From assembly GCA_019428825.1 (NCBI GenBank), contig JAHYJU010000002.1, positions 1-41,282 on the forward strand: DNA of 41,282 bases, read 5' to 3'. This document shows positions 1 through 39,550 of this stretch, piece by piece. Below the pieces are notes generated by a model that was not told where the DNA came from, searched no databases, and saw only the letters and a list, made by a program, of their open reading frames with translations. The DNA is from Patescibacteria group bacterium. Its GTDB lineage: Bacteria > Patescibacteriota > WWE3 > UBA101185 > UBA10185. A program made the translations under genes and the position numbers. Position 1 is the first letter of the stretch. The number at the start of each line of letters is the position of its first letter.

Positions 1-271
1 CGGCTAATACCATACCCTGTGATTCAAGTCCCATCATTTTTCTAGGTTCAATATTTATTATAAAAGGAAGTTGCTTGCCTACGATGGTCTCAGGGCTGTA
101 CCAAGCTTTTATACCTGCAATTATTTGTCTTTTTCCAATTTCACCGAAATCAACCTCCATTTTTATGAGTTTTTCGGAACCTTCTACACCCTCTGCAGAG
201 AGGATAGTTCCTAATCTAATATCAATTTTTGCAAAGTCTTCAAATTTAATTATTGGTTTTGGTTCGTTCAT
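1..271 (-). CDS. tRNA-binding domain protein (CsaA / EMAP-II / MetRS C-terminal-domain-like), 3' end cut by window edge
   Basis: Not in the ORF track because it runs off the window. The reverse complement from the ATG at 271 reads [90 protein letters not shown]. This is the classic OB-fold tRNA_bind pattern (DIRxG, GxxxRQIxxGI, NxxPxKxxGxxSxGMxLA). Confidence 0.85.
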
Positions 272-329
272 ATTGTTGACTATACCTCAAATATTATATA
301 AACTCCACCTGTTAATAAGGAGTAATAAT

Positions 330-503
330 ATGGGAAAAACAAAGAGAACATGGCAACCTAAAAAAAGAAAAAGGGTAAAAAAACACGGATTCCTTAAGAG
401 GATGTCCTCACCCGGTGGTATAAATGTTATTAAGAGAAGAAAAGCCAAGGGAAGAAAGGAAGTCGTAGTTTCCGCAAGAGATAAAAAAGATAAAAAAAGA
501 TAA
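330..503 (+). CDS. rpmH: 50S ribosomal protein L34
   Basis: Only the 3' part of track ORF 75..503 is real. ATG at 330 is preceded by AAGGAG (318-323). The 57-aa product [43 protein letters not shown] is the canonical L34 sequence. Confidence 0.95.
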
Positions 504-526
504 TTTATTCAAATTGGTATCTTCTG

Positions 527-874
527 ATGCTTAAAAAAGAAAACAGACTTTCCACTAACTTTGAATTTAATATAACTAGAAAATACGGAAAATATTACAA
601 AGGAAAGTTTTTCCATATATATTTCCTGGTGCCGAAAAAATACGATGGTCCTACAAAAGTTGGTATAGTGGTGTCGAACAAATTCAGCAAAAATGCTGTC
701 GAAAGAAATAGGGTAAAAAGGGTTTTTCGGGAAGTCGTGAGAAATAATTTTGAAAAAATTAACAAAGGTAATCTTTGGGTAGTTATTCACCCTAAGATAT
801 CTTGTACTAAAGCAACTTATGAAGAAATTAATTCTGAATTTAATAAAATTCTACAAGAAGCATCTTTCTCTTGA
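527..874 (+). CDS. rnpA: RNase P protein component
   Basis: 115 aa and basic, with the RNR-type motif region [15 protein letters not shown]. It occupies the conserved position directly after rpmH. Confidence 0.9.
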
Positions 875-1034
875 CGAGAAGGGGGTAAAAGTTTGTAGAT
901 TTACACCAACCTGTTCCGAATACACGTATCAGGCGATAGAAAAATATGGGGTTATAAAGGGTGGCTTGATGGGATTTGGTAGAATACTAAGATGCAACCC
1001 TTTCTCAAAGGGAGGCAACGATCCTGTAAAATAA
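819..1034 (+). CDS. yidD: membrane protein insertion efficiency factor YidD
   Basis: 71 aa with [19 protein letters not shown]...[16 protein letters not shown], the YidD signature. It overlaps the 3' end of rnpA by 56 nt in another frame and sits before yidC. Confidence 0.9.
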
Positions 1035-1050
1035 TTAAAGGGTAAAAATT

Positions 1051-1827
1051 ATGTGGAATACAATATTAATAAATCCAATATTCAATCTCTTAATAGGTTT
1101 ATACAGACTAACCGGAAATTTAGGTGTATCAATAATATTTTTTACAATAGTGGCAAAGACAATTTTAATACCCGTAACAATCCCTCAAATAAAGATGGCC
1201 AAAAAACAGAGAGATATTCAACCGGAGCTAGATAAGATAAAACAAAAATTCAAATACGATAAAAAGAAACAGGCAGAATTACAGATGGAACTGTTTAAAA
1301 AACATGGTATAAACCCGGGAGCTGGTTGTTTTACCACTATAATAACTTTTGTTCTTATGATAGCTATATACAGAGCTATTACTACATTAACCATGGCTAC
1401 AGATATAATAGCTCTCAACGACAGGATATATTTTGAAGGTTTAAAATTCTTTTCAGGTGAGAATCTTGCAACAAAATTTCTATATCTTGATATGACTAAA
1501 CCCGACCCACTTTTGATAGTTACGGTACTAACCGTTGTATCCCAATTTTTAGCAACGAAAATGATATCACCCTACTCAAAAACAGCCACTAAAGCGGTTA
1601 AAAAAACTCCCGGACAGGCAGATGACATAATGCAAGCAATGCAAAAACAAAACCAATATGTTATGCCTATAATGTTTTTTGTTTTCGGAATAACACTTCC
1701 ATCGGGTGTAATGTTATATATCCTTACTTCTACTATATTCCAGATAGGTCAAACTTACTTCTTCTCCGGATGGGGAGGTTTAAAACCATGGATTAATAAA
1801 TTAAAATCTGGTAAAAAAGAAAGGTAA
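1051..1827 (+). CDS. yidC: YidC/Oxa1-family membrane protein insertase (short form)
   Basis: 258 aa, multi-pass, with the typical motif region IPVTIPQIKMAKKQRDIQPELDKIKQKFKYDKKKQAELQMELFKKHGINP. Synteny is rnpA-yidD-yidC-jag. Confidence 0.9.
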   Translation: MWNTILINPIFNLLIGLYRLTGNLGVSIIFFTIVAKTILIPVTIPQIKMAKKQRDIQPELDKIKQKFKYDKKKQAELQMELFKKHGINPGAGCFTTIITFVLMIAIYRAITTLTMATDIIALNDRIYFEGLKFFSGENLATKFLYLDMTKPDPLLIVTVLTVVSQFLATKMISPYSKTATKAVKKTPGQADDIMQAMQKQNQYVMPIMFFVFGITLPSGVMLYILTSTIFQIGQTYFFSGWGGLKPWINKLKSGKKER

Positions 1828-1858
1828 GGCTTTTACCCCGAAAGCTTATTTCATCATT

Positions 1859-2335
1859 ATGGAAACAAAAGAAATAATAAAAACTAATTTGGACAAAATA
1901 TTTAAGTTTATAGGAATAGATCCTAAAACCGAGATAGAAGAAAAGGAAGAAAATAACTACTCGGTTACTATATCCGGAGACAATCTAAATTTTTTGATTG
2001 GTTTCAGAGGTCAGTCTTTGGAGGCACTTCAAAATATTTTAAGACTGATGATATTTAGAAAAACACAAGTTCAACCAATACTGACAGTTGATATAAATGA
2101 TTACAGAGATAATAAATCAGAGAAGCTTCAGGATATGGCTAAAAGTTTTATAGATAAAGTAAGGTTTTTTCAAAAAGAGGTTGAGCTACCAAGAATGAGT
2201 CCCTGGGAAAGAAGAGAAATACATATGCTGGTCTCAGAATACGAAGATATATTTTCAGAAAGCACCGGAGAGGGAGAAGATAGAAGAATAGTTTTAAAAC
2301 TAAAGAAACAAAATTCAAAAGAAGAAAAGGAGTAA
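1859..2335 (+). CDS. jag: Jag/SpoIIIJ-associated RNA-binding protein (KH + R3H domains)
   Basis: 158 aa. KH-like segment FLIGFRGQSLEALQNILRL and R3H segment MSPWERREIHMLV. Conserved position after yidC. Confidence 0.8.
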   Translation: METKEIIKTNLDKIFKFIGIDPKTEIEEKEENNYSVTISGDNLNFLIGFRGQSLEALQNILRLMIFRKTQVQPILTVDINDYRDNKSEKLQDMAKSFIDKVRFFQKEVELPRMSPWERREIHMLVSEYEDIFSESTGEGEDRRIVLKLKKQNSKEEKE

Positions 2336-2344
2336 AATCAATTC

Positions 2345-3451
2345 ATGAAATTCTCTTGCCTACAAGAAAATCTATCTAAAGGTTTACAAACCGTTATGCA
2401 TGCTGTTCCTGTCAAAAGTTCACTACCGATATTGTCAAATGTTTTAATAGAAATTGAAAAAGGAAGAATTAAATTATCGGCTACTAATCTTGAGACGGCA
2501 ATAACAACTTACGTGGGAGCCTCGATAGAAGAAGAGGGTTCTATCACAGTGCCGGCTAAACTTTTAAAAGATTTTATAACAAACCTGTCGCCGGGGACCA
2601 TAAATTCCCAGGTTAAAGACGACATATTTATAATTAATTCAAAAACTACAAAATCAAAATTTAACGGTAGCAGTCCAAAAGACTTTCCCGAACTACCTGA
2701 ATTTCCCAAAAAGACTAAAAATTTAAAAATTGAACCGGATTTGCTAAATGAAATTGTTGGAGTAGTTGCTTTTGCCTCGGGAATGGATACTAGCAGACCT
2801 ATATTTACTGGAATTTATATGGATTATTCCAAAGATAAACTAACTATCACATCCACTGATGGATTCAGATTGTCCGAGAAAACGGTAAAAATGAAAGGGG
2901 AAATTGAAGATTTTAAGGTTGTTATACCTGCAAAAACTTTGGTAGAAGTAGCAAGAATCTTTTCTTCGTCTCAAGAACCAATCGAATTTACACTAAATCA
3001 AAATGAAAATTTAGCACTCTTTAAGTCGGAAGATACTGTTATAGCAACAAGGATACTTGACGGTGATTACCCTGATTACAAAAAGATTATTCCAGGCGAA
3101 CACATAGTTAAAGCTAATTTTGTTGCCTCGGAATTTACTGAGGCAGTAAGATTAACGGATATTTTCGCAAAAGAAGGCAATAGTACCATAAAAATTCGTT
3201 TTGACCCGGAAGGTAAGATAAAAATAACTTCTTTATCAGAAGAAACCGGACAGCACGAAAGTAATTTATCAGCTGAAATTGAAGGTGAGCTGGTAGAAAT
3301 TGCCTTTAATTCAAAATATCTTCTTGATTTTCTAACAAATATAAAATCCGAAAAAATTGATTTTAGTTCAAATGGAAATATTTCTCCTTGTACTTTCAAT
3401 CCTGACTCTCAGAAGGACTTCGTCCACATAATAATGCCGATGCAAATCTAG
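2345..3451 (+). CDS. dnaN: DNA polymerase III beta subunit (sliding clamp)
   Basis: 368 aa. N-terminus MKFSCLQENLSKGLQTVMHAVPVKSSLPILSNVLIE and C-terminus MPMQI are typical of DnaN, and the length fits three domains. Confidence 0.95.
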   Translation: MKFSCLQENLSKGLQTVMHAVPVKSSLPILSNVLIEIEKGRIKLSATNLETAITTYVGASIEEEGSITVPAKLLKDFITNLSPGTINSQVKDDIFIINSKTTKSKFNGSSPKDFPELPEFPKKTKNLKIEPDLLNEIVGVVAFASGMDTSRPIFTGIYMDYSKDKLTITSTDGFRLSEKTVKMKGEIEDFKVVIPAKTLVEVARIFSSSQEPIEFTLNQNENLALFKSEDTVIATRILDGDYPDYKKIIPGEHIVKANFVASEFTEAVRLTDIFAKEGNSTIKIRFDPEGKIKITSLSEETGQHESNLSAEIEGELVEIAFNSKYLLDFLTNIKSEKIDFSSNGNISPCTFNPDSQKDFVHIIMPMQI

Positions 3452-5996: not shown

Positions 5997-6698
5997 TTAC
6001 TCCTCAATTATTGCGGGATTAACTATAGCTGTTTTATAATCCTCTATGTTAGTCCTTATCCTTTGACCATGTAAATTACTGGGATTGTAAATATCAAAAT
6101 ACAATTCAACTAGTTCCTGTGTACCAAGTTGCCTGGCTTTTACTCCTAATCTACTGAATTCTCTAATAATGTGATCCACTTTTGGAGCCAAATCTATCTT
6201 ACCATCTCGTAAAACTCTTTCTAAGTTAATATCTACCCTTCTATTTTGAACCCCCACCAATTTTGATACCCAATCAAAAGCGCTTCCGCCTTTTTCAACC
6301 AAAATTGACTGTCCTGAGGGAACAACAACATAAAATTTCTTATCCAAAACCTCATTTACTTTTATTACCTCCTGAACAAATTTTCTGTAAGACTCTGCCT
6401 GGTGTTTTAAGAGTGGGTCAGATATTCTTGACTCCACCTTTCTTACTTTTTCTACATATTTTGAAATATCTAGTTTTCTTGATCTGACAACAACTTGTAT
6501 TGGGAAAGTTATAGAGTTCAAAAGCATTGAAAAAGCGGCAATAATAGCATCCTGCTCTATCTCAGAAAGAAGGTCAAAGTTAACAGCTGTAGTTTGAATA
6601 ACAGAACATACAACCCCATTTTTCAATACGGTCAAATTATCTTTTATGTCAAAAATGTCTAAGTGTTCTTGAGTTGTAGGTGTACTTTGGGCAGCCAT
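5997..6698 (-). CDS. soluble T4SS-associated protein, possibly a detached VirB4 N-terminal domain
   Basis: 233 aa with no TM segment. It lies 1 nt after the PrgI-like gene and 5 nt before the VirB4 ORF. The pattern DIFDIKDNLTVLKNGVVCSVIQTTAVNFDLLSEIEQDAIIAAFSMLLNSITFPIQVVVRSRKLDISKY resembles, from memory, the extreme N-terminus of Gram-positive ICE VirB4 proteins. Confidence 0.55.
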   Translation of the reverse strand: MAAQSTPTTQEHLDIFDIKDNLTVLKNGVVCSVIQTTAVNFDLLSEIEQDAIIAAFSMLLNSITFPIQVVVRSRKLDISKYVEKVRKVESRISDPLLKHQAESYRKFVQEVIKVNEVLDKKFYVVVPSGQSILVEKGGSAFDWVSKLVGVQNRRVDINLERVLRDGKIDLAPKVDHIIREFSRLGVKARQLGTQELVELYFDIYNPSNLHGQRIRTNIEDYKTAIVNPAIIEE

Positions 6699-30611: not shown

Positions 30612-30624
30612 CCAATGGGTGGAC
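30612..30624 (-). repeat. duplicated 3'-end fragment of the adjacent tRNA-Met gene
   Basis: CCAATGGGTGGAC at 30612-30624 is identical to 30741-30753 inside the tRNA. Similarity extends into the flank (GATGATT versus GATGGTG). The offset is 129 bp. Confidence 0.7.
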
Positions 30625-30735
30625 GGGGTCCAAGTAAAAAATTTAGGAAAAAACTTATACTTTTAAAAACAATTTGCCGATCTTAAATTTTCTTAGGGCT
30701 GATCACCATCTCGGCGTAGCCTTGGCGAAGACGGA

Positions 30736-30811
30736 TGGTGCCAATGGGTGGACTTGAACCACCGACCTAGCGCTTATGAAACGCCCGCTCTGACCCCTGA
30801 GCTACATTGGC
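30736..30811 (-). tRNA. tRNA-Met (anticodon CAU; elongator type, or possibly tRNA-Ile2 if lysidine-modified), CCA encoded
   Basis: The reverse complement folds as GCCAATG TA GCTC AGGGGTCA GAGC G GGCGT TTCATAA GCGCT AGGTC GGTGG TTCAAGT CCACC CATTGGC ACCA. The cloverleaf is complete and G1-C72 is paired. Confidence 0.9.
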
Positions 30812-31353: not shown

Positions 31354-31494
31354 AAAACTAACTAAGATTATATCACTTATTTTTTGAAGAAAATAAAGAA
31401 ATTAATAATATTTTGAGAGGAAATTTTCTTTGGCCCGCCAGGCGTAGCTCGAAGAGCGAAGACTGGCCTTGCCAACCGAAGCTTTAGCGTAAGT

Positions 31495-32128: not shown

Positions 32129-33004
32129 ATGAAATTAGAAACAGCTCACAAAAAATTTATAGAAAAATTAAGATCCGAAGGAAAATCGAAAGCCACGGTA
32201 GTTGCTTATAATAAAGATATTGAACAGATACGTGAATTTTTATCTGAAAAAAATATTACTGATGTTGAAGGTATGAAGATTGAACACCTCACATCTTTTA
32301 TGAAAAGCTTGGAGGAAAAAAATTACACTCCTAAGTCTATTTCTAGAAAAACAAATGCTACAAGAACTTTTATTAAATATTTGGCAGGAGAAGGTTATCT
32401 TAAAGAAGACATATCTTCTCAATTAAAACATCCTAAGTTTGAGATGGGGGCTCCTAGGATTTTATCTAAAATGGAGTATAGAGCTTTAAGAGATTCTGCA
32501 AAAGATGATGTAAGAAGTTATGCAATGATAGAGACACTTCTACAGACTGGCATTACTATTTCCGAACTAGCAGGAATTAGCATGGAAGATATTGATATAA
32601 AAGGAGAAACAGGTACTTTGTTTATTCCTAAAAGAAATAATAAAGATGCAAGAAATGTTCCTTTAAATAAAGCGGTTGTTGAAGCGATTACAAAATACAT
32701 AGAAAAAGGAAGGCCTGATGTAAAAGGTTCTTCTAATGATCTTTTTATTACAAAAACAGGAAGGTCTCTTTTGATAAGAAATATTAGATCTACTATTGAT
32801 AGGTTTTTTAGGATAGCAGGAGTTGAAAATGCAAAAGTAAATGACTTAAGACATACTTTTGTAGCCCATCATTTACAAAATGGGGTTAATATTTCTTATT
32901 TAGCAAAAGTATCAGGACATAAAAGAGAATCTACTACGGAAAAATATCTTGAATATATTGAGAAACCGGAGAAGATGGAAAAAACTGAGCTGTCTGTTTT
33001 ATAA
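32129..33004 (+). CDS. Xer-like tyrosine recombinase/integrase with a non-canonical active site
   Basis: 291 aa. The N-terminal SAM-like domain is followed by a catalytic domain that aligns with XerD: QTGITISEL (versus ATGLRVSEL), NKDARNVPL, NDLRHTFVAHHL (versus HVLRHAFATHLL) and SGHKRESTTEKYLEY (GH...Y). Confidence 0.85.
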   Translation: MKLETAHKKFIEKLRSEGKSKATVVAYNKDIEQIREFLSEKNITDVEGMKIEHLTSFMKSLEEKNYTPKSISRKTNATRTFIKYLAGEGYLKEDISSQLKHPKFEMGAPRILSKMEYRALRDSAKDDVRSYAMIETLLQTGITISELAGISMEDIDIKGETGTLFIPKRNNKDARNVPLNKAVVEAITKYIEKGRPDVKGSSNDLFITKTGRSLLIRNIRSTIDRFFRIAGVENAKVNDLRHTFVAHHLQNGVNISYLAKVSGHKRESTTEKYLEYIEKPEKMEKTELSVL

Positions 33005-34674: not shown

Positions 34675-34926
34675 ATGGAATATGCAACATTAACTAAACA
34701 AAATCAAATAACGGTTCCTATGAAAGTACGAGATAAACTCAAACTTAAACCCAGCGATAAGTTGGTTTTCTATGAATCCGGAGACTCCGTAATAGTAACT
34801 AAACTTAAATCTATAGAAGATTTTAAGGGCTTATTAAAGGATTATAAAGTTGAATTAGGTAAACAAGGAAACGAAAGTATCTGGTTGGATAGATACATAA
34901 GGTATGAAGAACAAGCCGAAAAATGA
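34675..34926 (+). CDS. AbrB/MazE/SpoVT-family antitoxin (VapB-like)
   Basis: 83 aa. The N-terminal swapped-hairpin motif is LTKQNQITVPMKVRDKLKLKPSDKLVFYESGDSVIVTKL. It is paired with a downstream PIN gene. Confidence 0.8.
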   Translation: MEYATLTKQNQITVPMKVRDKLKLKPSDKLVFYESGDSVIVTKLKSIEDFKGLLKDYKVELGKQGNESIWLDRYIRYEEQAEK

Positions 34927-35317
34927 TACTTTAAAAGATAAAATTAGAATGTCAAAAGGAGTTGTTGTAGACACAAACATTCTAATAAGAGCTCTTATTG
35001 ATGAAAACGCAGAACTATCAAAACTAATTGCAAACTCTGACGAAGTTCATATTCCATTGCCTATTTTTTTTGAAACAGTATTTGTACTAGAGAAATTTTA
35101 TAAACAACCAAGAGAAACAATTATTGATTATATATTTACTATCGTTTCCTATGAGAATATTTTCACCGATAAAAATAGTCTTAAGGAAGTTCTTTATACT
35201 TATGAAAGAAAACAAAACTTAAGTATTATAGATTGTTTTCTATTAACATACGCCAAGATTTATAATTTAAAAGTAAAAACACTGGATAAGGCTTTAAAGA
35301 AACATTTAATTAATTGA
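34904..35317 (+). CDS. PIN-domain toxin (VapC-like)
   Basis: 137 aa if started at ATG 34904 (23-nt overlap with the antitoxin). An alternative ATG is at 34949 (MSKGVVVDTNILI). Conserved acidic positions are VVVDTN, FFETVFVLE and IIDCFLL. Confidence 0.8.
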   Translation: MKNKPKNDTLKDKIRMSKGVVVDTNILIRALIDENAELSKLIANSDEVHIPLPIFFETVFVLEKFYKQPRETIIDYIFTIVSYENIFTDKNSLKEVLYTYERKQNLSIIDCFLLTYAKIYNLKVKTLDKALKKHLIN

Positions 35318-35338
35318 TGGTGGGTGATCCAGGACTCG
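35318..35338 (-). repeat. exact 21-nt duplicate of the 3' end (T-loop to CCA) of tRNA-Ile, abutting the vapC stop codon
   Basis: TGGTGGGTGATCCAGGACTCG at 35318-35338 is identical to 35485-35505. It begins 1 nt after the TGA at 35315-35317. Confidence 0.9.
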
Positions 35339-35484
35339 GTCACAAGTCCAAGTATCTCTACGTCACTGCGTTCCTAGAGCTTCTTGGCTCGCGACCCCCT
35401 CTCCTTCGCTACGCTCAGTCCGAATTATTCTCGTCCTGTATCACAGAAAGCTAGCTACCATCCTGCGGATGATATCTACCTTTC

Positions 35485-35560
35485 TGGTGGGTGATCCAGG
35501 ACTCGAACCTGGAACCGGGCGTGTATAAGACGCCTGCTCTGCCAATTGAGCTAATCACCC
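35485..35560 (-). tRNA. tRNA-Ile (anticodon UAU), CCA encoded
   Basis: The reverse complement folds as GGGTGAT TA GCTC AATTGGCA GAGC A GGCGT CTTATAC ACGCC CGGTT CCAGG TTCGAGT CCTGG ATCACCC A CCA. The cloverleaf is perfect and the anticodon loop CTTATAC gives TAT. Confidence 0.9.
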
Positions 35561-35668
35561 ATATTTTATCTTTACCTATCTTCCTCTAGTGTCTTTCGCT
35601 CCGCTCAAGTCAAATAATTCTATCTTCTTATGTATAGATTATCTCTGGATATCGCTTCGCTCTATCAG

Positions 35669-35681
35669 GAGCTAATCACCC
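35669..35681 (-). repeat. exact copy of tRNA-Ile positions 1-13 (5' acceptor strand + D-stem)
   Basis: GAGCTAATCACCC at 35669-35681 is identical to 35548-35560. Confidence 0.85.
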
Positions 35682-35759
35682 GTAATAAACCCAGAGTAAA
35701 TTAATGTTAACGTACTTTTATTCTCCGTCTTGGTCAACTACGCTTACGCTTGTTGGCTA

Positions 35760-35779
35760 AAGACGCCTGCTCTGCCAAT
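35760..35779 (-). repeat. exact copy of tRNA-Ile positions 15-34 (D-loop to first anticodon base)
   Basis: AAGACGCCTGCTCTGCCAAT at 35760-35779 is identical to 35527-35546. Confidence 0.85.
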
Positions 35780-35896
35780 CTTACCAACGCACTAACAAAA
35801 AATTATACCTTTCTTTCATTGTCACTCGCAAAAGCTCGCTATATTTTTCTAATCTACAATTATACGTTGGTAACGGTCGTCGCTTCGCTCCGACAG

Positions 35897-35960
35897 GGGC
35901 TAGTCACCCGTGAACATCTCTACTTACCTTCTTTAATATCTTTCGCTCCGCTCAAATATA
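35897..35960 (-). repeat. diverged duplicate of the tRNA-Ile 5' end plus its upstream flank
   Basis: GGGCTAGTCACCC (2 mismatches to tRNA positions 1-13) is followed by ...ATCTCTACTTACCTTC...TCTTTCGCTCCGCTCAAATATAAT. This parallels 35548-35620 (...ATCTTTACCTATCTTC...TCTTTCGCTCCGCTCAAGTCAAATAAT). Confidence 0.7.
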
Positions 35961-35963
35961 ATA

Positions 35964-36314
35964 TCAAACTTCCTCAATCAAAAATTCTTCCAAATCTTCC
36001 TCTTTTTTCAAGTCTTTTCTTCTCTGGACTATACTATCTTTTTCAATCATATCAAGCAATTCCTCCACTACAACCACTAAAGCATTTTCCAATGTAAAAG
36101 CAGTTTCATCAGAGAAATATTCTTTTCCGCTTAGAATCAAATTCACTTTAACTTCAAACTGATCATCAGGAACTGAATTTAAAACTACCCTAGCAAAACG
36201 AGACCCTTCAGGTAAATTATCTGTCCTAGCTTCTATCCTTTCAAATTTCTCTTTCGTTAATGCCTCCATGCTTGGAGAGAGATCTATATTATCGGAAGTT
36301 ATTTGATATTGCAT
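35964..36314 (-). CDS. hpf: ribosome hibernation-promoting factor / RaiA (YfiA) family protein (short form)
   Basis: 116 aa. MQYQITSDNIDLSPSMEALTKEKFERIE...FEVKVNLILSGKEYFSDETAFTLENAL matches the sigma-54-modulation/HPF fold pattern. Confidence 0.85.
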   Translation of the reverse strand: MQYQITSDNIDLSPSMEALTKEKFERIEARTDNLPEGSRFARVVLNSVPDDQFEVKVNLILSGKEYFSDETAFTLENALVVVVEELLDMIEKDSIVQRRKDLKKEEDLEEFLIEEV

Positions 36315-37215: not shown

Positions 37216-37219
37216 GAAA

Positions 37220-37248
37220 TTGAGGATTTTGGTTAGGATTGTTATAAT
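37220..37248 (+). promoter_or_regulatory. strong sigma70-like promoter (TTGAGG-17-TGT-TATAAT) heading the noncoding tRNA-Asn leader region
   Basis: TTGAGG lies at 37220-37225, then a 17-nt spacer ending in an extended -10 TG (37240-37241), then TATAAT at 37243-37248. No ORF follows. Confidence 0.5.
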
Positions 37249-37287
37249 TCGAAAGTTATTCGTTGAAAAAGCAAGTTTTGAGAACAG

Positions 37288-37296
37288 TCCCCTGTA
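37288..37296 (+). repeat. tRNA-Asn positions 1-9 fragment (with upstream-flank similarity)
   Basis: GAGAACAGTCCCCTGTA here compares with GAGAATAGTCCCCTGTA at the real gene (37645-37661). Confidence 0.7.
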
Positions 37297-37320
37297 AGAA
37301 CCTTTGCCTTCGGCAAAGAA

Positions 37321-37460
37321 CCTTGCATTTGAGCTATAGCACTTCGTACTATAGCGTCAAAAGAAAGTGCCTTGCATTTGAGCTATAGCACTTCGTACTA
37401 TAGCGTCAAAAGAAAGTGCCTTGCATTTGAGCTATAGCACTTCGTACTATAGCGTCAAAA
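37321..37460 (+). repeat. perfect tandem repeat, 49-bp unit x 2.9, each unit containing a hairpin
   Basis: Units start at 37321, 37370 and 37419 and are identical: CCTTGCATTTGAGCTATAGCACTTCGTACTATAGCGTCAAAAGAAAGTG. The internal hairpin is GCTATAGCAC-TTC-GTACTATAGC (9 bp plus 1 mismatch). Confidence 0.95.
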
Positions 37461-37471
37461 GTAGCTCAATG
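37461..37471 (+). repeat. tRNA-Asn positions 7-17 fragment
   Basis: GTAGCTCAATG follows the tandem repeat directly. Together with 37288-37296 it reconstitutes tRNA-Asn positions 1-17 if 37297-37463 is removed. Confidence 0.7.
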
Positions 37472-37524
37472 CTTTACTGCTTGTGAGATAACTGGGATAG
37501 TATAATATATTTACAATTCAATAG

Positions 37525-37590
37525 TCCCCTGTAGCTCAATGGGAAGAACCGTCTCGCTTCGCTCGAGAACCTTGCGATTGCGCTACAATC
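37525..37590 (+). pseudogene. tRNA-like chimera: exact tRNA-Asn positions 1-18 joined to two foreign hairpin arms, no 3' acceptor strand
   Basis: TCCCCTGTAGCTCAATGG (37525-37542) is followed by GAAGAACCG, then TCTCG-CTTCGCT-CGAGA (37552-37568; 5-bp stem, 7-nt loop), then AACCTTGC, then GATTG-CGCTA-CAATC (37576-37590). There is no complementary 3' acceptor strand. Confidence 0.6.
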
Positions 37591-37652
37591 AAAAACGTGT
37601 TTATTATTTATAATTAAATACGATAAAAATTTGATAAATTAAATGAGAATAG

Positions 37653-37727
37653 TCCCCTGTAGCTCAATGGTAGAGCGTCCGGCTGTTAACCGGCAGGTTC
37701 GTGGTTCGAGTCCACGCGGGGGAGCCA
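37653..37727 (+). tRNA. tRNA-Asn (anticodon GUU), CCA encoded
   Basis: Folds as TCCCCTG TA GCTC AATGGTA GAGC G TCCGG CTGTTAA CCGGC AGGTT CGTGG TTCGAGT CCACG CGGGGGA G CCA. Confidence 0.93.
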
Positions 37728-38978: not shown

Positions 38979-39550
38979 TTGGTTATATTAAGGTTACGGT
39001 CGGCGAGCCATTATCCTGTAGTATTTTACAAAGAAGGGTTAAAATATGCTGGATTAATCCCTACAGATACAATCTATGGACTATCCTGCTTAGCTTCTAC
39101 ACAAGAAAATGAAGAAAAAATATATGAGATAAAACAACGAGATTACGATAAACCATTCATTATTCTTATTTCAAATATTAAAGATTTACAAGAATTTGAA
39201 ATACCTCTAGCAAAAGATGAAAAAGAAACATTAAAAAATACTGGCCAGGACCTGTCAGTATAATCCTCAAGGTAGACAACAAAAGATATAGATATTTGCA
39301 CAGGGGAATGGGATCCCTTGCATTTAGACTTCCTAAAGAGAAAGACTTAGTTAACATTATAAAAACAACCGTTCCAATAGTTTCAACCAGTGCAAACACC
39401 TCGAACTACCCTCCCATAAACTCTGTATCAGAAGCAAAAATACAGTTTGAAGAAAAATTGGATTTTATGTTGGACAAAGGAAAACTGAATAATAAACCTT
39501 CCAAAATTATAAAAAAGAAAATGGTATTGAACACATACTTAGATAGATAA
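38979..39550 (+). pseudogene. tsaC: L-threonylcarbamoyladenylate synthase TsaC/YrdC, interrupted by a frameshift in an A-run
   Basis: The N-terminal frame (TTG 38979..39263) has LIPTDTIYGLSC...IKQRDYDKPFIIL. The C-terminal part continues in the +1 frame from about 39219, with KKYWPGPVSIILKV...LAFRLP...PIVSTSANTSNYPP...PSKII. The frames switch at TTAAAAAAT (A6 at 39233-39238). Confidence 0.8.

Follow-up and report, generated by a model that had tools for sequence, protein, structure and literature searches.

Miniature elements of the REP/BIME and IS200/IS605 types are tiny and non-coding, with subterminal hairpins and without terminal inverted repeats; REP elements are dispersed over intergenic regions, and insertion of IS200/IS605 elements gives no target duplication. 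The GC clusters and hairpin elements of mitochondria are GC-rich hairpin modules in AT-rich genomes, characterized by short flanking duplications, strain copy-number variation, and modules that merge, become shuffled and are exchanged between lineages (PMC4478555, PMC2800124). In 'insertion with long target duplication' (Nobusato 2000, Furuta 2010/2011), as far as its discussion for rRNA genes in PMC3457768 goes, short DNA of unknown origin sits in an RNA gene between long direct target repeats and is recognized by comparison with an empty site. tRNA genes themselves are entered by tDNA islands and prophages of 2-200 kb (the 'Islander' signature), which split the target yet regenerate it, leave an end-fragment in the same orientation and occur in tandem arrays, with crossovers in the anticodon loop and T-loop (PMC4383910, PMC9897764). 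Their displaced fragments obey a configuration rule, lying on the same strand with 5' pieces upstream and 3' pieces downstream; the D-loop is not among the recognized integrase subsites, and 5' fragments mark 159 of 3919 known islands, or ~4% (PMC4383910). In split, permuted and multi-intron tRNA genes of archaea and algae, break points in loops are accompanied by GC-rich pairing flanks (PMC3978253).

The locus described here lies in a 41,282-nt stretch of DNA, called the window, from a Patescibacteria group bacterium of candidate division WWE3 (contig JAHYJU010000002.1). Between hpf and a tRNA-Ile gene, and again downstream of the latter, pieces of that gene alternate with other sequence, as follows in the 5' to 3' direction of the minus strand:

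35964..36314, minus: hpf, the ribosome hibernation factor, short form (Pfam Ribosomal_S30AE, NCBIfam yfiA)
35910..35956, minus: copy of the present upstream tRNA flank, the 3' part of a beta-type element (direct repeat D1)
35897..35909, minus: decayed outermost copy of tRNA positions 1-13, GGGTGACTAGCCC, matching at 11/13
35780..35896, minus: element gamma, with homologues only beside tRNA-Ile
35760..35779, minus: exact copy of tRNA positions 15-34, whose last base is the first anticodon base
35682..35759, minus: element alpha', with 20 homologues, all beside tRNA-Ile in the same orientation
35669..35681, minus: exact copy of tRNA positions 1-13, the innermost 5' fragment
35561..35668, minus: element beta, which ends as the present 5' flank of the tRNA
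35485..35560, minus: intact tRNA-Ile(UAU) with encoded CCA (ARAGORN; Rfam tRNA, 67.2 bits)
35339..35484, minus: element delta, consisting of the long hairpin kappa (35446-35484) and a structured core (35339-35439)
35318..35338, minus: exact copy of tRNA positions 56-76 including CCA, a displaced or duplicated 3' end 146 nt past the gene

The original prediction, made from the letters of the sequence, had described an intact tRNA-Ile surrounded by exact pieces of itself and by a diverged copy of positions 1-13 with upstream flank. Sequence comparison agrees with all of these: ARAGORN and Rfam find the same single intact tRNA-Ile(TAT) on the minus strand, and 35931-35963, which includes a GAGCGGAGCGA mini-hairpin (35943-35953, inside the flank copy), is 82% identical over 33 nt to the gene's own upstream flank at 35584-35616. 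The matches go far beyond chance, since any 12-mer in common with the tRNA occurred in only 2 of 1000 dinucleotide-preserving shuffles of the flanks, where the longest match was 12 nt vs the 21, 20 and 13 nt observed. The pieces overlap each other and cover positions 1-34 and 56-76 only, positions 35-55 never being represented. The outer copy of positions 1-13 is more decayed while the inner is exact; the orthologue of the outermost copy remains exact in L023 and L006 (such labels denote fetched loci of relatives, W the window and X25 a sequencing run), and the innermost is found at -120 to -122 in W, L001, L002, L004, L006, L023, L026, L031 and L033. Substitutions are shared between fragment and resident gene: the 15-34 fragment and the tRNA both have G27 in the window and both A27 in relatives L004 and L006, and in L002 C60 is present in the tRNA and also in the 56-76 fragment. 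A conserved 14-mer directly before the 15-34 piece may be diverged 1-14. As had been noted earlier, no convincing ORF covers the tract among the ORFs of the window. The Rfam scan then proposed, carried out with Rfam 15 and permissive E-values on the tract and on four relatives, gave matches to tRNA alone; a hit to Hammerhead_HH9 (E = 7.4, 14 bits vs a gathering score of 52) was without the catalytic core and was rejected.

The spacers belong to families of 40-150-nt non-coding hairpin-rich elements, the intervals of the tract measuring 77-146 nt and containing no gene. Gamma opens with the hairpin CTGTCG-GAGCGAAGCGA-CGACCG (35874-35896), has a promoter-like TTGCGA-18-TATAAT in its interior (35831-35802) and ends in the conserved GGTGCGTTGGTAAG. 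Alpha', located constantly between a fragment ending at position 34 and a position 1, starts with TAG and the hairpin GCCAAC...GTTGAC around GCGTAAGC, after which AAGACG is complementary to fragment positions 29-34; the idea that alpha is what decay has left of positions 35-76 in a tandem copy of the whole gene was discarded, the similarity being no better than that of shuffles (P = 0.34-1.0). Beta begins with the hairpin CTGATA-GAGCGAAGCGA-TATCC, followed by GAGATAATC, which is nearly complementary to tRNA positions 5-13; an AT-rich body comes next, then a second mini-hairpin (35596-35606) and finally the tRNA 5' flank. The beta stem covaries (GATA/TATC, GTCG/CGAC, GTTG/CAAC). Delta carries GAGCGTAGCGA at 35406-35416, and its CAGGAC (35433-35438) pairs with GTCCTG (35330-35335) of the 56-76 piece ~100 nt further downstream. 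Its fold is far better than those of shuffles (z = -5.1), and in its consensus structure, of which 93% is paired, 8 pairs are compensated and a G-U is invariant. The delta family is also found at tRNA-Met in L009 and L033, and a covariance model search found no copies past those from nhmmer. Two further readings of delta were abandoned. For delta plus the 56-76 piece as a tmRNA, two-piece tmRNA or minihelix, W has GTGAT-ACAGG upstream, from which a 12-bp acceptor/T helix could form, but this possible helix is not kept in L012, L009 or L045. A guide RNA made of a TnpB omega-RNA-like scaffold and flanking sequence would be directed against the intact gene next to it, and tnpB was not seen.

Similar arrays at other tRNAs, whose search had been suggested along with the original observation, are present in the same window at tRNA-Asn and tRNA-Met:

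37216..37652, plus: tract at tRNA-Asn, equivalent to the tRNA-Ile tract
37220-37248, plus: promoter-like site of the tRNA-Asn tract
37288-37296, plus: copy of tRNA-Asn positions 1-9
37297-37460, plus: element epsilon, with a perfect 49-nt x 2.9 tandem repeat (37321-37461)
37461-37471, plus: copy of tRNA-Asn positions 7-17
37525-37542, plus: copy of tRNA-Asn positions 1-18
37543-37652, plus: element zeta, which abuts tRNA-Asn
37653-37727, plus: tRNA-Asn gene
30612..30624, minus: copy of tRNA-Met positions 59-71, 112 nt downstream of tRNA-Met (30736-30811)

The tRNA-Asn site is empty in L045 and L047, where the DUF1189 stop is followed directly by tRNA-Asn, and their near-identical relative L046 has the full tract; the AT-rich body of zeta is not copied from local sequence and is foreign to the empty site. 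In L005, a dead tRNA-Asn copy lies 18 nt past a conserved -10 box, the place occupied by the live gene in L032, and the live tRNA-Asn of L005 is found ~190 nt downstream of the dead copy, behind zeta. In L006, a 193-nt Asn unit is present twice. Epsilon in the window's tRNA-Asn copy is 86% identical to epsilon in a tRNA-Ile copy of L020, whose hpf protein is only 43% identical to that of the window, and in both places it is flanked by GTA on both sides, its entry following (T/G)GTA. Epsilon and the 43-nt beta' each consist of two hairpins.

The sequence GAGCGNAGCGA (on the opposite strand TCGCTNCGCTC) has five occurrences within the tract and a single one upstream of tRNA-Asn vs a whole-window expectation of 0.38, which bears out the motif reported earlier from the spacers. 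It fits GCGNAGC, and hyperstable mini-hairpins of single-stranded DNA have GCGNAGC/GCGNNAGC as their consensus (PMC13037366). All 8 of the 8 GCGNAGC sites in the 41-kb window fall in the non-coding flanks of its four tRNAs, in sense orientation at tRNA-Ile and antisense at tRNA-Asn and tRNA-Met. The direction of transcription or replication was rejected as the cause of this orientation, both orientations being found within one replichore, to which the window is assigned because of its monotonic GC skew. Junctions are in part quasi-palindromic, with helices of 7-8 bp at zeta and of 10 bp at tRNA-Met in L033, and pairing across the hairpin is significant at the zeta junctions of tRNA-Asn, at two beta junctions (L002, L023) and at one of tRNA-Met (L033). 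A general rule, by which the broken end pairs across the inserted hairpin, was given up and kept as a tendency, most tRNA-Ile junctions not being significant.

Comparison of orthologous hpf-tRNA-Ile regions, another of the checks originally proposed, revealed the fragment pattern in 34 of 60 loci from candidate division WWE3 genomes and metagenomes; in the four tRNA species sampled, all around a single conserved gene cluster, the phenomenon extends through the phylum and to several tRNAs beyond the tRNA-Ile locus. Break points at 13/14, 34/35-35/36 and 55/56 recur across these 34 loci, and 20/21 is another frequent D-loop break point. Among 69 tRNA genes scanned, fragments are confined to the strand of the gene, 5' pieces lying upstream of it and 3' pieces downstream, and no antisense copy of at least 11 nt was found at any of them. 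Empty tRNA-Ile sites, in which the hpf stop is separated from the tRNA by 7-9 nt, are present in L007, L008 and L040, and related strains range from such sites to 560-nt stacks that differ by whole units: L042 is alpha-tRNA, L041 alpha-[1-34]-alpha-tRNA and L039 has one further unit; L033 has two tandem beta units, 100% identical, and L002 one; L004 equals L006 plus [1-34]-alpha. The same architecture is seen in independent assemblies of close relatives (L023, L006/L038, L004/L037, L026, L031). Between species, identity is 91-98% in the fragments vs 71-76% elsewhere in the tract (Fisher p 2e-4 to 2e-3), and this, together with the tracking of resident tRNA substitutions, fits the repeated gene conversion that the original prediction had considered.

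The elements are specific to tRNA flanks, move between tRNAs as well as between WWE3 lineages, and have GCGNAGC/GCGNNAGC mini-hairpins at their core. In the 442-484 kb of WWE3 sequence covered, they occur nowhere but in tRNA flanks, and they are much better conserved than host proteins: elements of 66-75 nt keep 86-92% identity between genomes in which the hpf protein shares 43-62% with that of the window. Two families occur at different tRNAs, each beside a copy of that tRNA's own end; thus, the delta core at tRNA-Met of L009 and that at tRNA-Ile of L012 are 92% identical, and the 3' end of the respective tRNA follows each. Contigs of unrelated metagenomes join the 3' half of delta to the 3' ends of other tRNAs, and the depth of these contigs is 20-100 times that of flanking genes. 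A phage origin was considered and rejected: delta, epsilon, the beta junction and the tRNA 3' end have no match in 2.9 million viral contigs (IMG/VR), and a looser pattern gave only random GC-rich matches. Reads of the source strain were not found in indexed runs, where the best word share was 0.14, owing to the tRNA itself, and an exact search for the hpf protein turned up no record.

Set beside the described systems, the tract agrees with tDNA islands in its tandem arrays and its split yet apparently regenerated target, in that the gene is accompanied by cognate end-fragments of the same orientation on the correct side and in that 34/35 and 55/56 lie in the anticodon loop and T-loop. The original prediction had placed the break points in the T-loop, anticodon loop and D-arm, as integrase-favoured sites; they do recur in the D-, anticodon and T-loops in dozens of loci, 34/35 and 55/56 fitting recognized subsites and the extra D-loop break points 13/14 and 20/21 not. 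In contrast to tDNA islands, 5' fragments predominate, the intervals hold no integrase and no kilobase body between gene and fragment, the spacers are conserved families that duplicate as units, and the delta core, instead of adjoining the T-arm repeat as a canonical attR would have to, is enclosed in a T-arm-like hairpin. With insertion with long target duplication as discussed in PMC3457768, the case shares a foreign segment, flanking target repeats and an empty site (L045/L047 vs L046 at tRNA-Asn, L006 vs L002/X25 for a 22-nt insert with a 12-nt repeat, L007/L008 vs the rest at tRNA-Ile), but here insertion is recurrent and nested, aimed at tRNA loops, with inserts in hairpin families and a duplication that reaches the gene end so that an intact gene survives. 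The mitochondrial modules share with the WWE3 elements the features listed for them above; in WWE3, however, the host is bacterial, and the elements keep to tRNA flanks, go together with partial tRNA duplications and have the specific GCGNAGC/GCGNNAGC core. As in miniature elements, short non-coding hairpin units exist in several copies at different sites (epsilon at tRNA-Asn and tRNA-Ile, delta at tRNA-Ile and tRNA-Met), and the two-hairpin build of epsilon and beta', as well as the entry of epsilon after (T/G)GTA, recall REP and IS200/IS605; restriction to tRNA flanks sets them apart, and no cognate RAYT or TnpA gene was seen, nor any transposase among the window's ORFs. Of MITE-type ends, inverted terminal repeats were not seen; epsilon has GTA on both sides at two sites, and the other duplications vary in length. 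With split or permuted tRNA genes the tract shares loop break points and GC-rich pairing flanks; its pieces, however, overlap rather than complement one another, leave 35-55 uncovered and do not jointly make one tRNA, and an intact gene is present; the splicing endonuclease is not known from bacteria. Nor does any Rfam 15 covariance model other than tRNA recognize the tract.

The reading favoured here, with about an even chance of being right, is that miniature elements were inserted one after another into tRNA loops, the gene being regenerated each time, and that unequal recombination and gene conversion reshuffled the outcome. Short (~40-150 nt) non-coding hairpin-rich DNA would enter a loop of the working gene, at D-loop 13/14, anticodon 34/35 or T-loop 55/56, after which the stretch from the entry point to the closer end of the gene would be present twice, and therefore one intact gene would survive beside a dead end-fragment. 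Further events would push older 5' fragments outward, toward hpf, and hairpin elements may also enter dead copies, gamma having probably split a former 1-34 copy and epsilon a tRNA-Asn copy. Unequal recombination or slippage between direct repeats would expand, delete and reshuffle whole units and keep the fragments identical to the live gene (concerted evolution). Regeneration may come from the insertion itself, either through a tRNA segment that the element carries and that recombines in the manner of attP x attB, or through long target duplication; candidate enzymes are the nearby conserved Xer-like recombinase and an integrase or HUH enzyme acting in trans from another part of the genome, or there may be no enzyme at all. 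For most polymorphisms, the polarity of gain and loss is presumed, a gain being indistinguishable from a precise deletion between repeats. Several facts count against serial insertion: no transposase or integrase was found in or beside the elements, the delta core is placed unlike that of an attR, and we know of no integrative element with intervals nearly so short. In addition, duplicated lengths vary (3, 12, 13, 18-20, 21 and 34-35 nt, plus 0-27 nt of flank), which fits replication template-switching better than a single enzyme.

Replication error alone, without a dedicated mobile element or enzyme, is the first rival to be weighed. In this account, exceptionally stable mini-hairpins and tRNA stem-loops stall the fork, and the growing strand moves to another template (by slippage, by fold-back or by copying a different hairpin-bearing flank) and resumes further upstream, giving partial duplications and templated filler. 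It would accommodate the confinement of the hyperstable consensus to tRNA flanks, the variable duplication lengths, the perfect tandem units (beta in L033 and the 49-nt repeat), several quasi-palindromic junctions and the fruitless search for an enzyme gene, and it may describe the duplication-creating step, so that it overlaps with the insertion reading. As a whole it is rather improbable, in view of closely similar elements at different tRNAs of distant hosts, the same GTA duplication of epsilon at two unrelated sites, the precision and recurrence of the break points, and the foreign body of zeta. Ordinary integrase scars, by which full-size islands or prophages repeatedly entered tRNA-Ile and later lost their interiors, leaving attP-arm remnants and displaced ends, are very unlikely. 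The tDNA-island signature in orientation and configuration and the classical crossover subsites in the anticodon loop and T-loop (PMC4383910, PMC9897764) speak for them, and so does the 3' side of tRNA-Ile, which takes islets such as a VapBC-like pair in the window and a 2.2-kb insert in L045 flanked by repeats of the tRNA 3' end and flank; a tyrosine recombinase gene is a conserved neighbour of the locus, and the Xer-like gene (32129-33004) 2.3 kb away, outside the intervals, is the sole recombinase in the window. Yet no full-size integrase-bearing element lies between a tRNA and its fragment among 73 loci, the supposed remnants are conserved in size and sequence and duplicate as units, 5' fragments dominate vs 159/3919 known islands (PMC4383910), 13/14 is not a known subsite and viral contigs lack the sequences. 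The serial integration scars of the original prediction are retained in their placement and decay gradient, which fit, and set aside as ordinary integrase-bearing islands by the 77-146-nt gene-free intervals and by families moving between tRNAs.

A functional RNA would require the tRNA-like pieces to be selected parts of a leader or trailer in the hpf-tRNA transcript, serving as processing signals, as decoys for tRNA-binding enzymes or, in delta, as a stable small RNA with a T-arm/CCA 3' end. The order hpf then tRNA-Ile(UAU) holds in every WWE3 locus long enough to show both, and hpf, lying upstream of tract and tRNA, is probably co-transcribed with both, as originally suggested: the hpf-tRNA gap is 7-9 nt in basal relatives, and metatranscriptome contigs, of low depth and without strand information, span the hpf 3' end into a relative's tract. 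Delta adds its excellent fold, with a three-helix architecture, compensatory changes and the invariant G-U, which works on the sense strand only, and its helix CAGGAC/GTCCTG covaries with the T60C change; the fragments are also as conserved as the tRNA itself. Such a role is nonetheless unlikely, and the composite RNA of tRNA-like modules imagined at the outset is not supported, in view of redundant pieces that never supply 35-55, spacers drifting to 71-76% identity, a tract missing or very different in unit number in close relatives, mini-hairpins in either orientation relative to the tRNA, and the want of an Rfam match. Most likely, the tract rides in the hpf-tRNA transcript as selfish or neutral DNA rather than designed RNA. 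That a repeated tRNA locus was misassembled is hardly credible: many metagenome contigs do end within tracts and L009 has a gap there, but the repeats of 13-21 nt are below assembly k-mer size, independent assemblies from different projects give the same piece order with ordinary sequence divergence, and individual junctions are covered by contigs of unrelated runs.

Taken as serial insertions, these tracts point to a previously undescribed family of tiny tRNA-targeting elements. A bolder version, put forward tentatively and rather doubtful, is that WWE3 host undescribed enzyme-less mini-hairpin elements that can enter any of three tRNA loops from either side and heal the gene with a displaced segment that they carry or generate, perhaps mobilized in trans by the Xer-like recombinase or through a single-stranded intermediate, with delta perhaps a structured RNA with a tRNA-like 3' end. 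If the insertion reading is true, even very small Patescibacteria genomes carry active, highly specialized mobile DNA, which exploits sites impossible to lose, single-copy tRNA genes, without destroying them. Such loci break metagenome assemblies and give spurious 'partial tRNA' calls, and island finders requiring an integrase and at least 2 kb overlook such events entirely. GCGNAGC-type mini-hairpins with gene-regenerating partial duplications would offer a tractable system for hairpin-driven insertion with long target duplication, and the unit-wise polymorphism could supply strain-level markers for WWE3 populations in digesters and sludge. A small-scale version of the proposed insertion event is seen within delta itself, where L002/L030 and the strain of the X25 run contain a 22-nt mini-hairpin insert flanked by a 12-nt duplication, and L006 has the empty site.

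The exact tRNA-Ile pieces that the original prediction had described around the intact gene, all in its orientation, are present where it had placed them, together with the diverged upstream copy and its flank, and, as it had stated, no ORF accounts for the tract.

35485-35560, minus strand: intact tRNA-Ile(UAU), called by ARAGORN (Rfam tRNA, 67.2 bits), the sole intact copy in the window
35318-35338, minus strand: exact copy of tRNA-Ile positions 56-76
35669-35681, minus strand: exact copy of positions 1-13
35760-35779, minus strand: exact copy of positions 15-34
35897-35909, minus strand: decayed copy of positions 1-13 (11/13), preceded by a copy of the tRNA-Ile upstream flank (82% over 33 nt)
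35964-36314, minus strand: hpf, the neighbour of the tract

Chance matches of this kind are rare, as a 12-mer in common with the tRNA occurred in just 2 of 1000 dinucleotide-preserving shuffles of the flanks. In an Rfam scan of the tract, tRNA was the only family accounting for its sequence. Read in the tRNA sense, the order is hpf, a beta-type flank copy, the decayed 1-13 piece, gamma, the 15-34 piece, alpha', the 1-13 piece, beta, the tRNA, delta and the 56-76 piece, in which the Greek letters denote hairpin-rich spacer elements. This whole stretch is collinear among the window and the related WWE3 loci L023 and L006. Because gamma, beta and a 43-nt insert of L044 all start directly after position 13 and have in common a hairpin, CTGYYG ... 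CRRCCG, that surrounds a mini-hairpin, the decayed 1-13 and 15-34 pieces are best read as what was once a single 1-34 copy, now interrupted by gamma. In the window as in L033 and L039, decay is more advanced in outer than in inner copies, a gradient that would be predicted by a serial process always hitting the live gene and pushing old ends outwards.

In all WWE3 loci that reach far enough (22 from genomes, 51 from metagenomes), tRNA-Ile(UAU) comes after hpf. The hpf stop is 7-9 nt from the tRNA in L007, L008 and L040, which carry no fragments and are empty sites; in closer relatives the distance is 188-560 nt. Fragments are present in 34 of 60 tRNA-Ile loci (not de-replicated), always on the same strand, with 5' pieces upstream and 3' pieces downstream. 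The comparison of orthologous intergenic regions, proposed in the original prediction, revealed recurrent breaks at 13/14, 34/35 or 35/36, and 55/56, with rarer ones at 20/21 and 53/54 in a few loci. Near-identical strains differ by whole units, and the arrangements include the following, with dead copies in parentheses.

L042, L043, L047: hpf-alpha-tRNA
L041: hpf-alpha-(1-34)-alpha-tRNA
L044-46: dead copy broken between positions 13 and 14 by a clean 43-nt insert of two hairpins
L039: additional (1-33)-alpha unit
L033: two beta units, 100% identical, at a place where L002 has one
L004: as L006, plus one (1-34)-alpha unit

In the tRNA-Ile tract of L009, a run of N (6395-6495) between identical 40-nt repeats is a scaffold gap at a duplication, and many metagenome contigs end within such tracts.

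Similar arrays at other tRNAs, for which a search had been suggested, were found in the window at tRNA-Asn and tRNA-Met.

37653-37727, plus strand: intact tRNA-Asn
37216-37652, plus strand: tRNA-Asn leader tract, with two dead 5' copies, epsilon, zeta and a promoter-like site
37525-37542, plus strand: exact copy of tRNA-Asn positions 1-18, upstream of the gene
37220-37248, plus strand: conserved promoter-like TTGAGG-17-TATAAT in the leader
30736-30811, minus strand: intact tRNA-Met
30612-30624, minus strand: copy of tRNA-Met positions 59-71, 112 nt downstream of the gene

An insert of 164 nt (epsilon) interrupts the second tRNA-Asn 5' copy after position 9 and holds a tandem array (37321-37461) of 2.9 perfect copies of a 49-nt unit. 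tRNA-Asn directly follows the DUF1189 stop in L045 and L047, and the full tract is present in their close relative L046; L006 carries a 193-nt tRNA-Asn unit twice. In L005, a dead tRNA-Asn copy stands 18 nt behind the conserved -10 box, the position of the live gene in L032, and the live gene is found ~190 nt beyond it, after an element with an AT-rich body of non-local sequence. Each of the two tRNA-Met genes has GC-rich hairpins downstream (30612-30735 and 31430-31494, minus strand), with GCGTAGC on the opposite strand at 30714-30720 and 31442-31448.

A search of ~0.45 Mb from WWE3 found alpha, beta, gamma, delta, kappa (the long hairpin of delta), epsilon and zeta homologues in tRNA flanks only; the few 'far' matches lie at ends of contigs, which cut off the tRNA. 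Two families, the delta core and epsilon, occupy different tRNAs, each time beside an end-piece of the very tRNA concerned. The delta core occurs after tRNA-Ile in the window and in L002, L004, L006, L012, L026, L031, L045, L046 and L055, and after tRNA-Met in L009 and L033; the L009-Met and L012-Ile cores are 92% identical over 72 nt. Epsilon, flanked by GTA on both sides at either site, splits a tRNA-Asn copy in the window and a tRNA-Ile copy in L020/L065 with 86% identity, in hosts whose hpf proteins are merely 43% identical. Contigs from unrelated metagenomes that match delta's 3' half reach 20-100 times the depth of flanking genes and run on into the 3' ends of other tRNAs. Moreover, close strains differ in delta by a 22-nt mini-hairpin insert, TTTAGATGCGAAGCATCGCAAC, between a 12-nt duplication, GAACGAAGTGAC (filled in L002 2100-2160, L030 and a strain of run X25; empty in L006 6982-6993), which is a miniature version of the same event as the tract.

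Five copies of the motif GAGCGNAGCGA lie in the tRNA-Ile tract and one lies upstream of tRNA-Asn, with 0.38 expected in the whole window. In the WWE3 sequence, 45 of 48 motif matches are no further than 600 nt from a tRNA. The 41-kb window has eight GCGNAGC sites, against 2.7 expected over its length, and every one of them falls in the non-coding flanks of the four tRNAs present. Relatives carry the variants GCGNNAGC (GCGTAAGC, GCGTTAGC, GCGACAGC), and the inner pair covaries from C-G to T-A (GAGTGAAACGA). GCGNAGC and GCGNNAGC coincide exactly with the two consensus forms of a single-stranded DNA mini-hairpin of extraordinary stability, which is known to occur in single-strand replication origins and in the N4 single-strand promoter (PMC13037366), and a role at the DNA level, in stalling, priming or recognition, may be envisaged. 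As the motif is sense at tRNA-Ile and antisense at tRNA-Asn and tRNA-Met under a GC skew that is monotonic over the window, its orientation is explained by the direction of neither transcription nor replication.

The tract behaves as tRNA-targeted integrative elements do (PMC4383910, PMC9897764) but is without their defining integrase-bearing body of at least 2 kb, and, unlike most catalogued islands, it uses the tRNA 5' side, which marks 159 of 3919 of them (PMC4383910). It matches the descriptive pattern called 'insertion with long target duplication' (PMC3457768), and its hairpin modules resemble in behaviour the mobile GC clusters found in yeast mitochondria: both have short duplications at their flanks, vary in copy number, merge and shuffle, and are exchanged between lineages (PMC4478555). 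It is neither a split nor a permuted tRNA gene. On the basis of one small conserved gene neighbourhood, it is a real, lineage-wide variant of tRNA-targeted mobile DNA, apparently undescribed so far.

The explanation preferred, at about an even chance of being right, is that miniature hairpin elements serially enter loops of the live tRNA gene, which would be regenerated each time; secondary insertions into dead copies would come next, and unequal recombination or conversion would yield unit-wise copy-number change and homogenisation. The second copy would be created by the insertion event itself; the acting enzyme and the direction (gain or loss) of most polymorphisms are presumptive. An element-borne tRNA segment might recombine with the gene, like attP with attB, so that duplications run to the gene end with merely 0-27 nt of flank; alternatively, a long duplication of the target made on insertion, or forks that stall and switch template at hairpins, would make duplication length variable. 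Pure replication error, though unlikely, would account for the duplication step and leaves unaccounted for the 86-92% whole-element conservation across distant genomes and different tRNAs. Serial integration and gene conversion, both raised in the original prediction, enter the preferred reading, but not as classical island scars: these would explain why the pieces are oriented as they are and where two of the three breaks fall, and are improbable given the conserved miniature size, the lack of any full-length element in 73 loci and the absence of delta, epsilon, the beta junction and the tRNA 3' end from 2.9 million viral contigs. Mis-assembly is hardly credible, since assembly k-mers exceed the repeats in length and the same result comes from independent assemblies.

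Fragments evolve slowly: among the window, L023 and L006 they are 91-98% identical, versus 71-76% for the remaining tract (Fisher p 2e-4 to 2e-3). They also change along with the live tRNA, G27 being found in both here and A27 in L004, L006 and L023, and C60 in both in L002; in L039, a D-loop deletion of the live tRNA is in the inner copy and absent from the outer. This may come about through gene conversion or unequal exchange involving the live gene, through re-insertion that recurs, or because identity is selected for.

Co-transcription of hpf and tRNA-Ile is likely, because basal relatives have no promoter room between them. For the L006 tract, one metatranscriptome contig joins the hpf 3' end to the tract and another covers its middle, both of low depth, with no strand information and with possible DNA carry-over. 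Most hairpins fold no better than shuffles (z -0.1 to -2.3), and delta reaches z = -5.1. A three-helix delta consensus from ten copies, with eight compensated pairs and an invariant G-U, is 93% paired versus 27-37% in slid controls, a figure inflated by deriving the structure from the alignment scored; delta matched no Rfam family. Since CAGGAC at the core start pairs with GTCCTG of the 56-76 piece, tracking the T60C change, delta sits inside a T-arm-like hairpin; the L033 counterpart complements the tRNA-Met piece perfectly over 10 nt. The delta structure keeps alive the suggested functional RNA composed of tRNA modules, which is nevertheless improbable, if slightly less so than island scars, as the tract is missing in relatives, unit number varies, spacers evolve fast and the pieces are redundant.

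The host belongs to candidate division WWE3 (Patescibacteria/CPR), and its closest hpf genes all come from WWE3 or 'Saccharibacteria'-labelled MAGs. Beyond hpf lie a DUF1189 membrane protein and tRNA-Asn; the other side holds a VapBC-like AbrB/PIN pair, a holin-like protein, a 332-aa protein and a Xer-like tyrosine recombinase.

34675-35317, plus strand: AbrB/MazE-type antitoxin and PIN-domain toxin (VapBC-like), directly beyond the 56-76 fragment
32129-33004, plus strand: Xer-like tyrosine recombinase, equally XerC-, XerD- and XerA-like, below curated cut-offs

The VapBC-like pair looks like a small islet inserted on the tRNA-Ile 3' side, as it is missing at the corresponding place in L023 and L006. 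A larger islet without integrase occupies the same site in L045 (3839-6117), where a 2.2-kb insert codes for a functionally uncharacterised 495-aa protein and has at its borders repeats of the tRNA 3' end with 26 nt of flank, and a second partial delta. Apart from the Xer-like recombinase, no transposase or integrase was found among the window genes. This recombinase is a conserved neighbour (L013, L019-L021 and L049), and in several WWE3 lineages its 3' end abuts that of tRNA-Ile.

Elsewhere in the window, rpmH, yidC, jag/khpB and dnaN lie on one strand (75-3451, plus) with no dnaA in between; the listed rpmH start is probably over-extended, the L34 domain being confined to residues 89-129 of 142 aa. 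A 94-aa Sua5/YrdC-like ORF (38979-39263, plus) covers positions 10-59 of a 178-position domain and may be a truncated or frameshifted gene. The two nearby CAU tRNAs look like one initiator and one elongator Met, and the UAU anticodon of the isoleucine tRNA throughout WWE3 (window 35485-35560 and all 60 related loci) implies that AUA is decoded without a lysidine-modified CAU tRNA.
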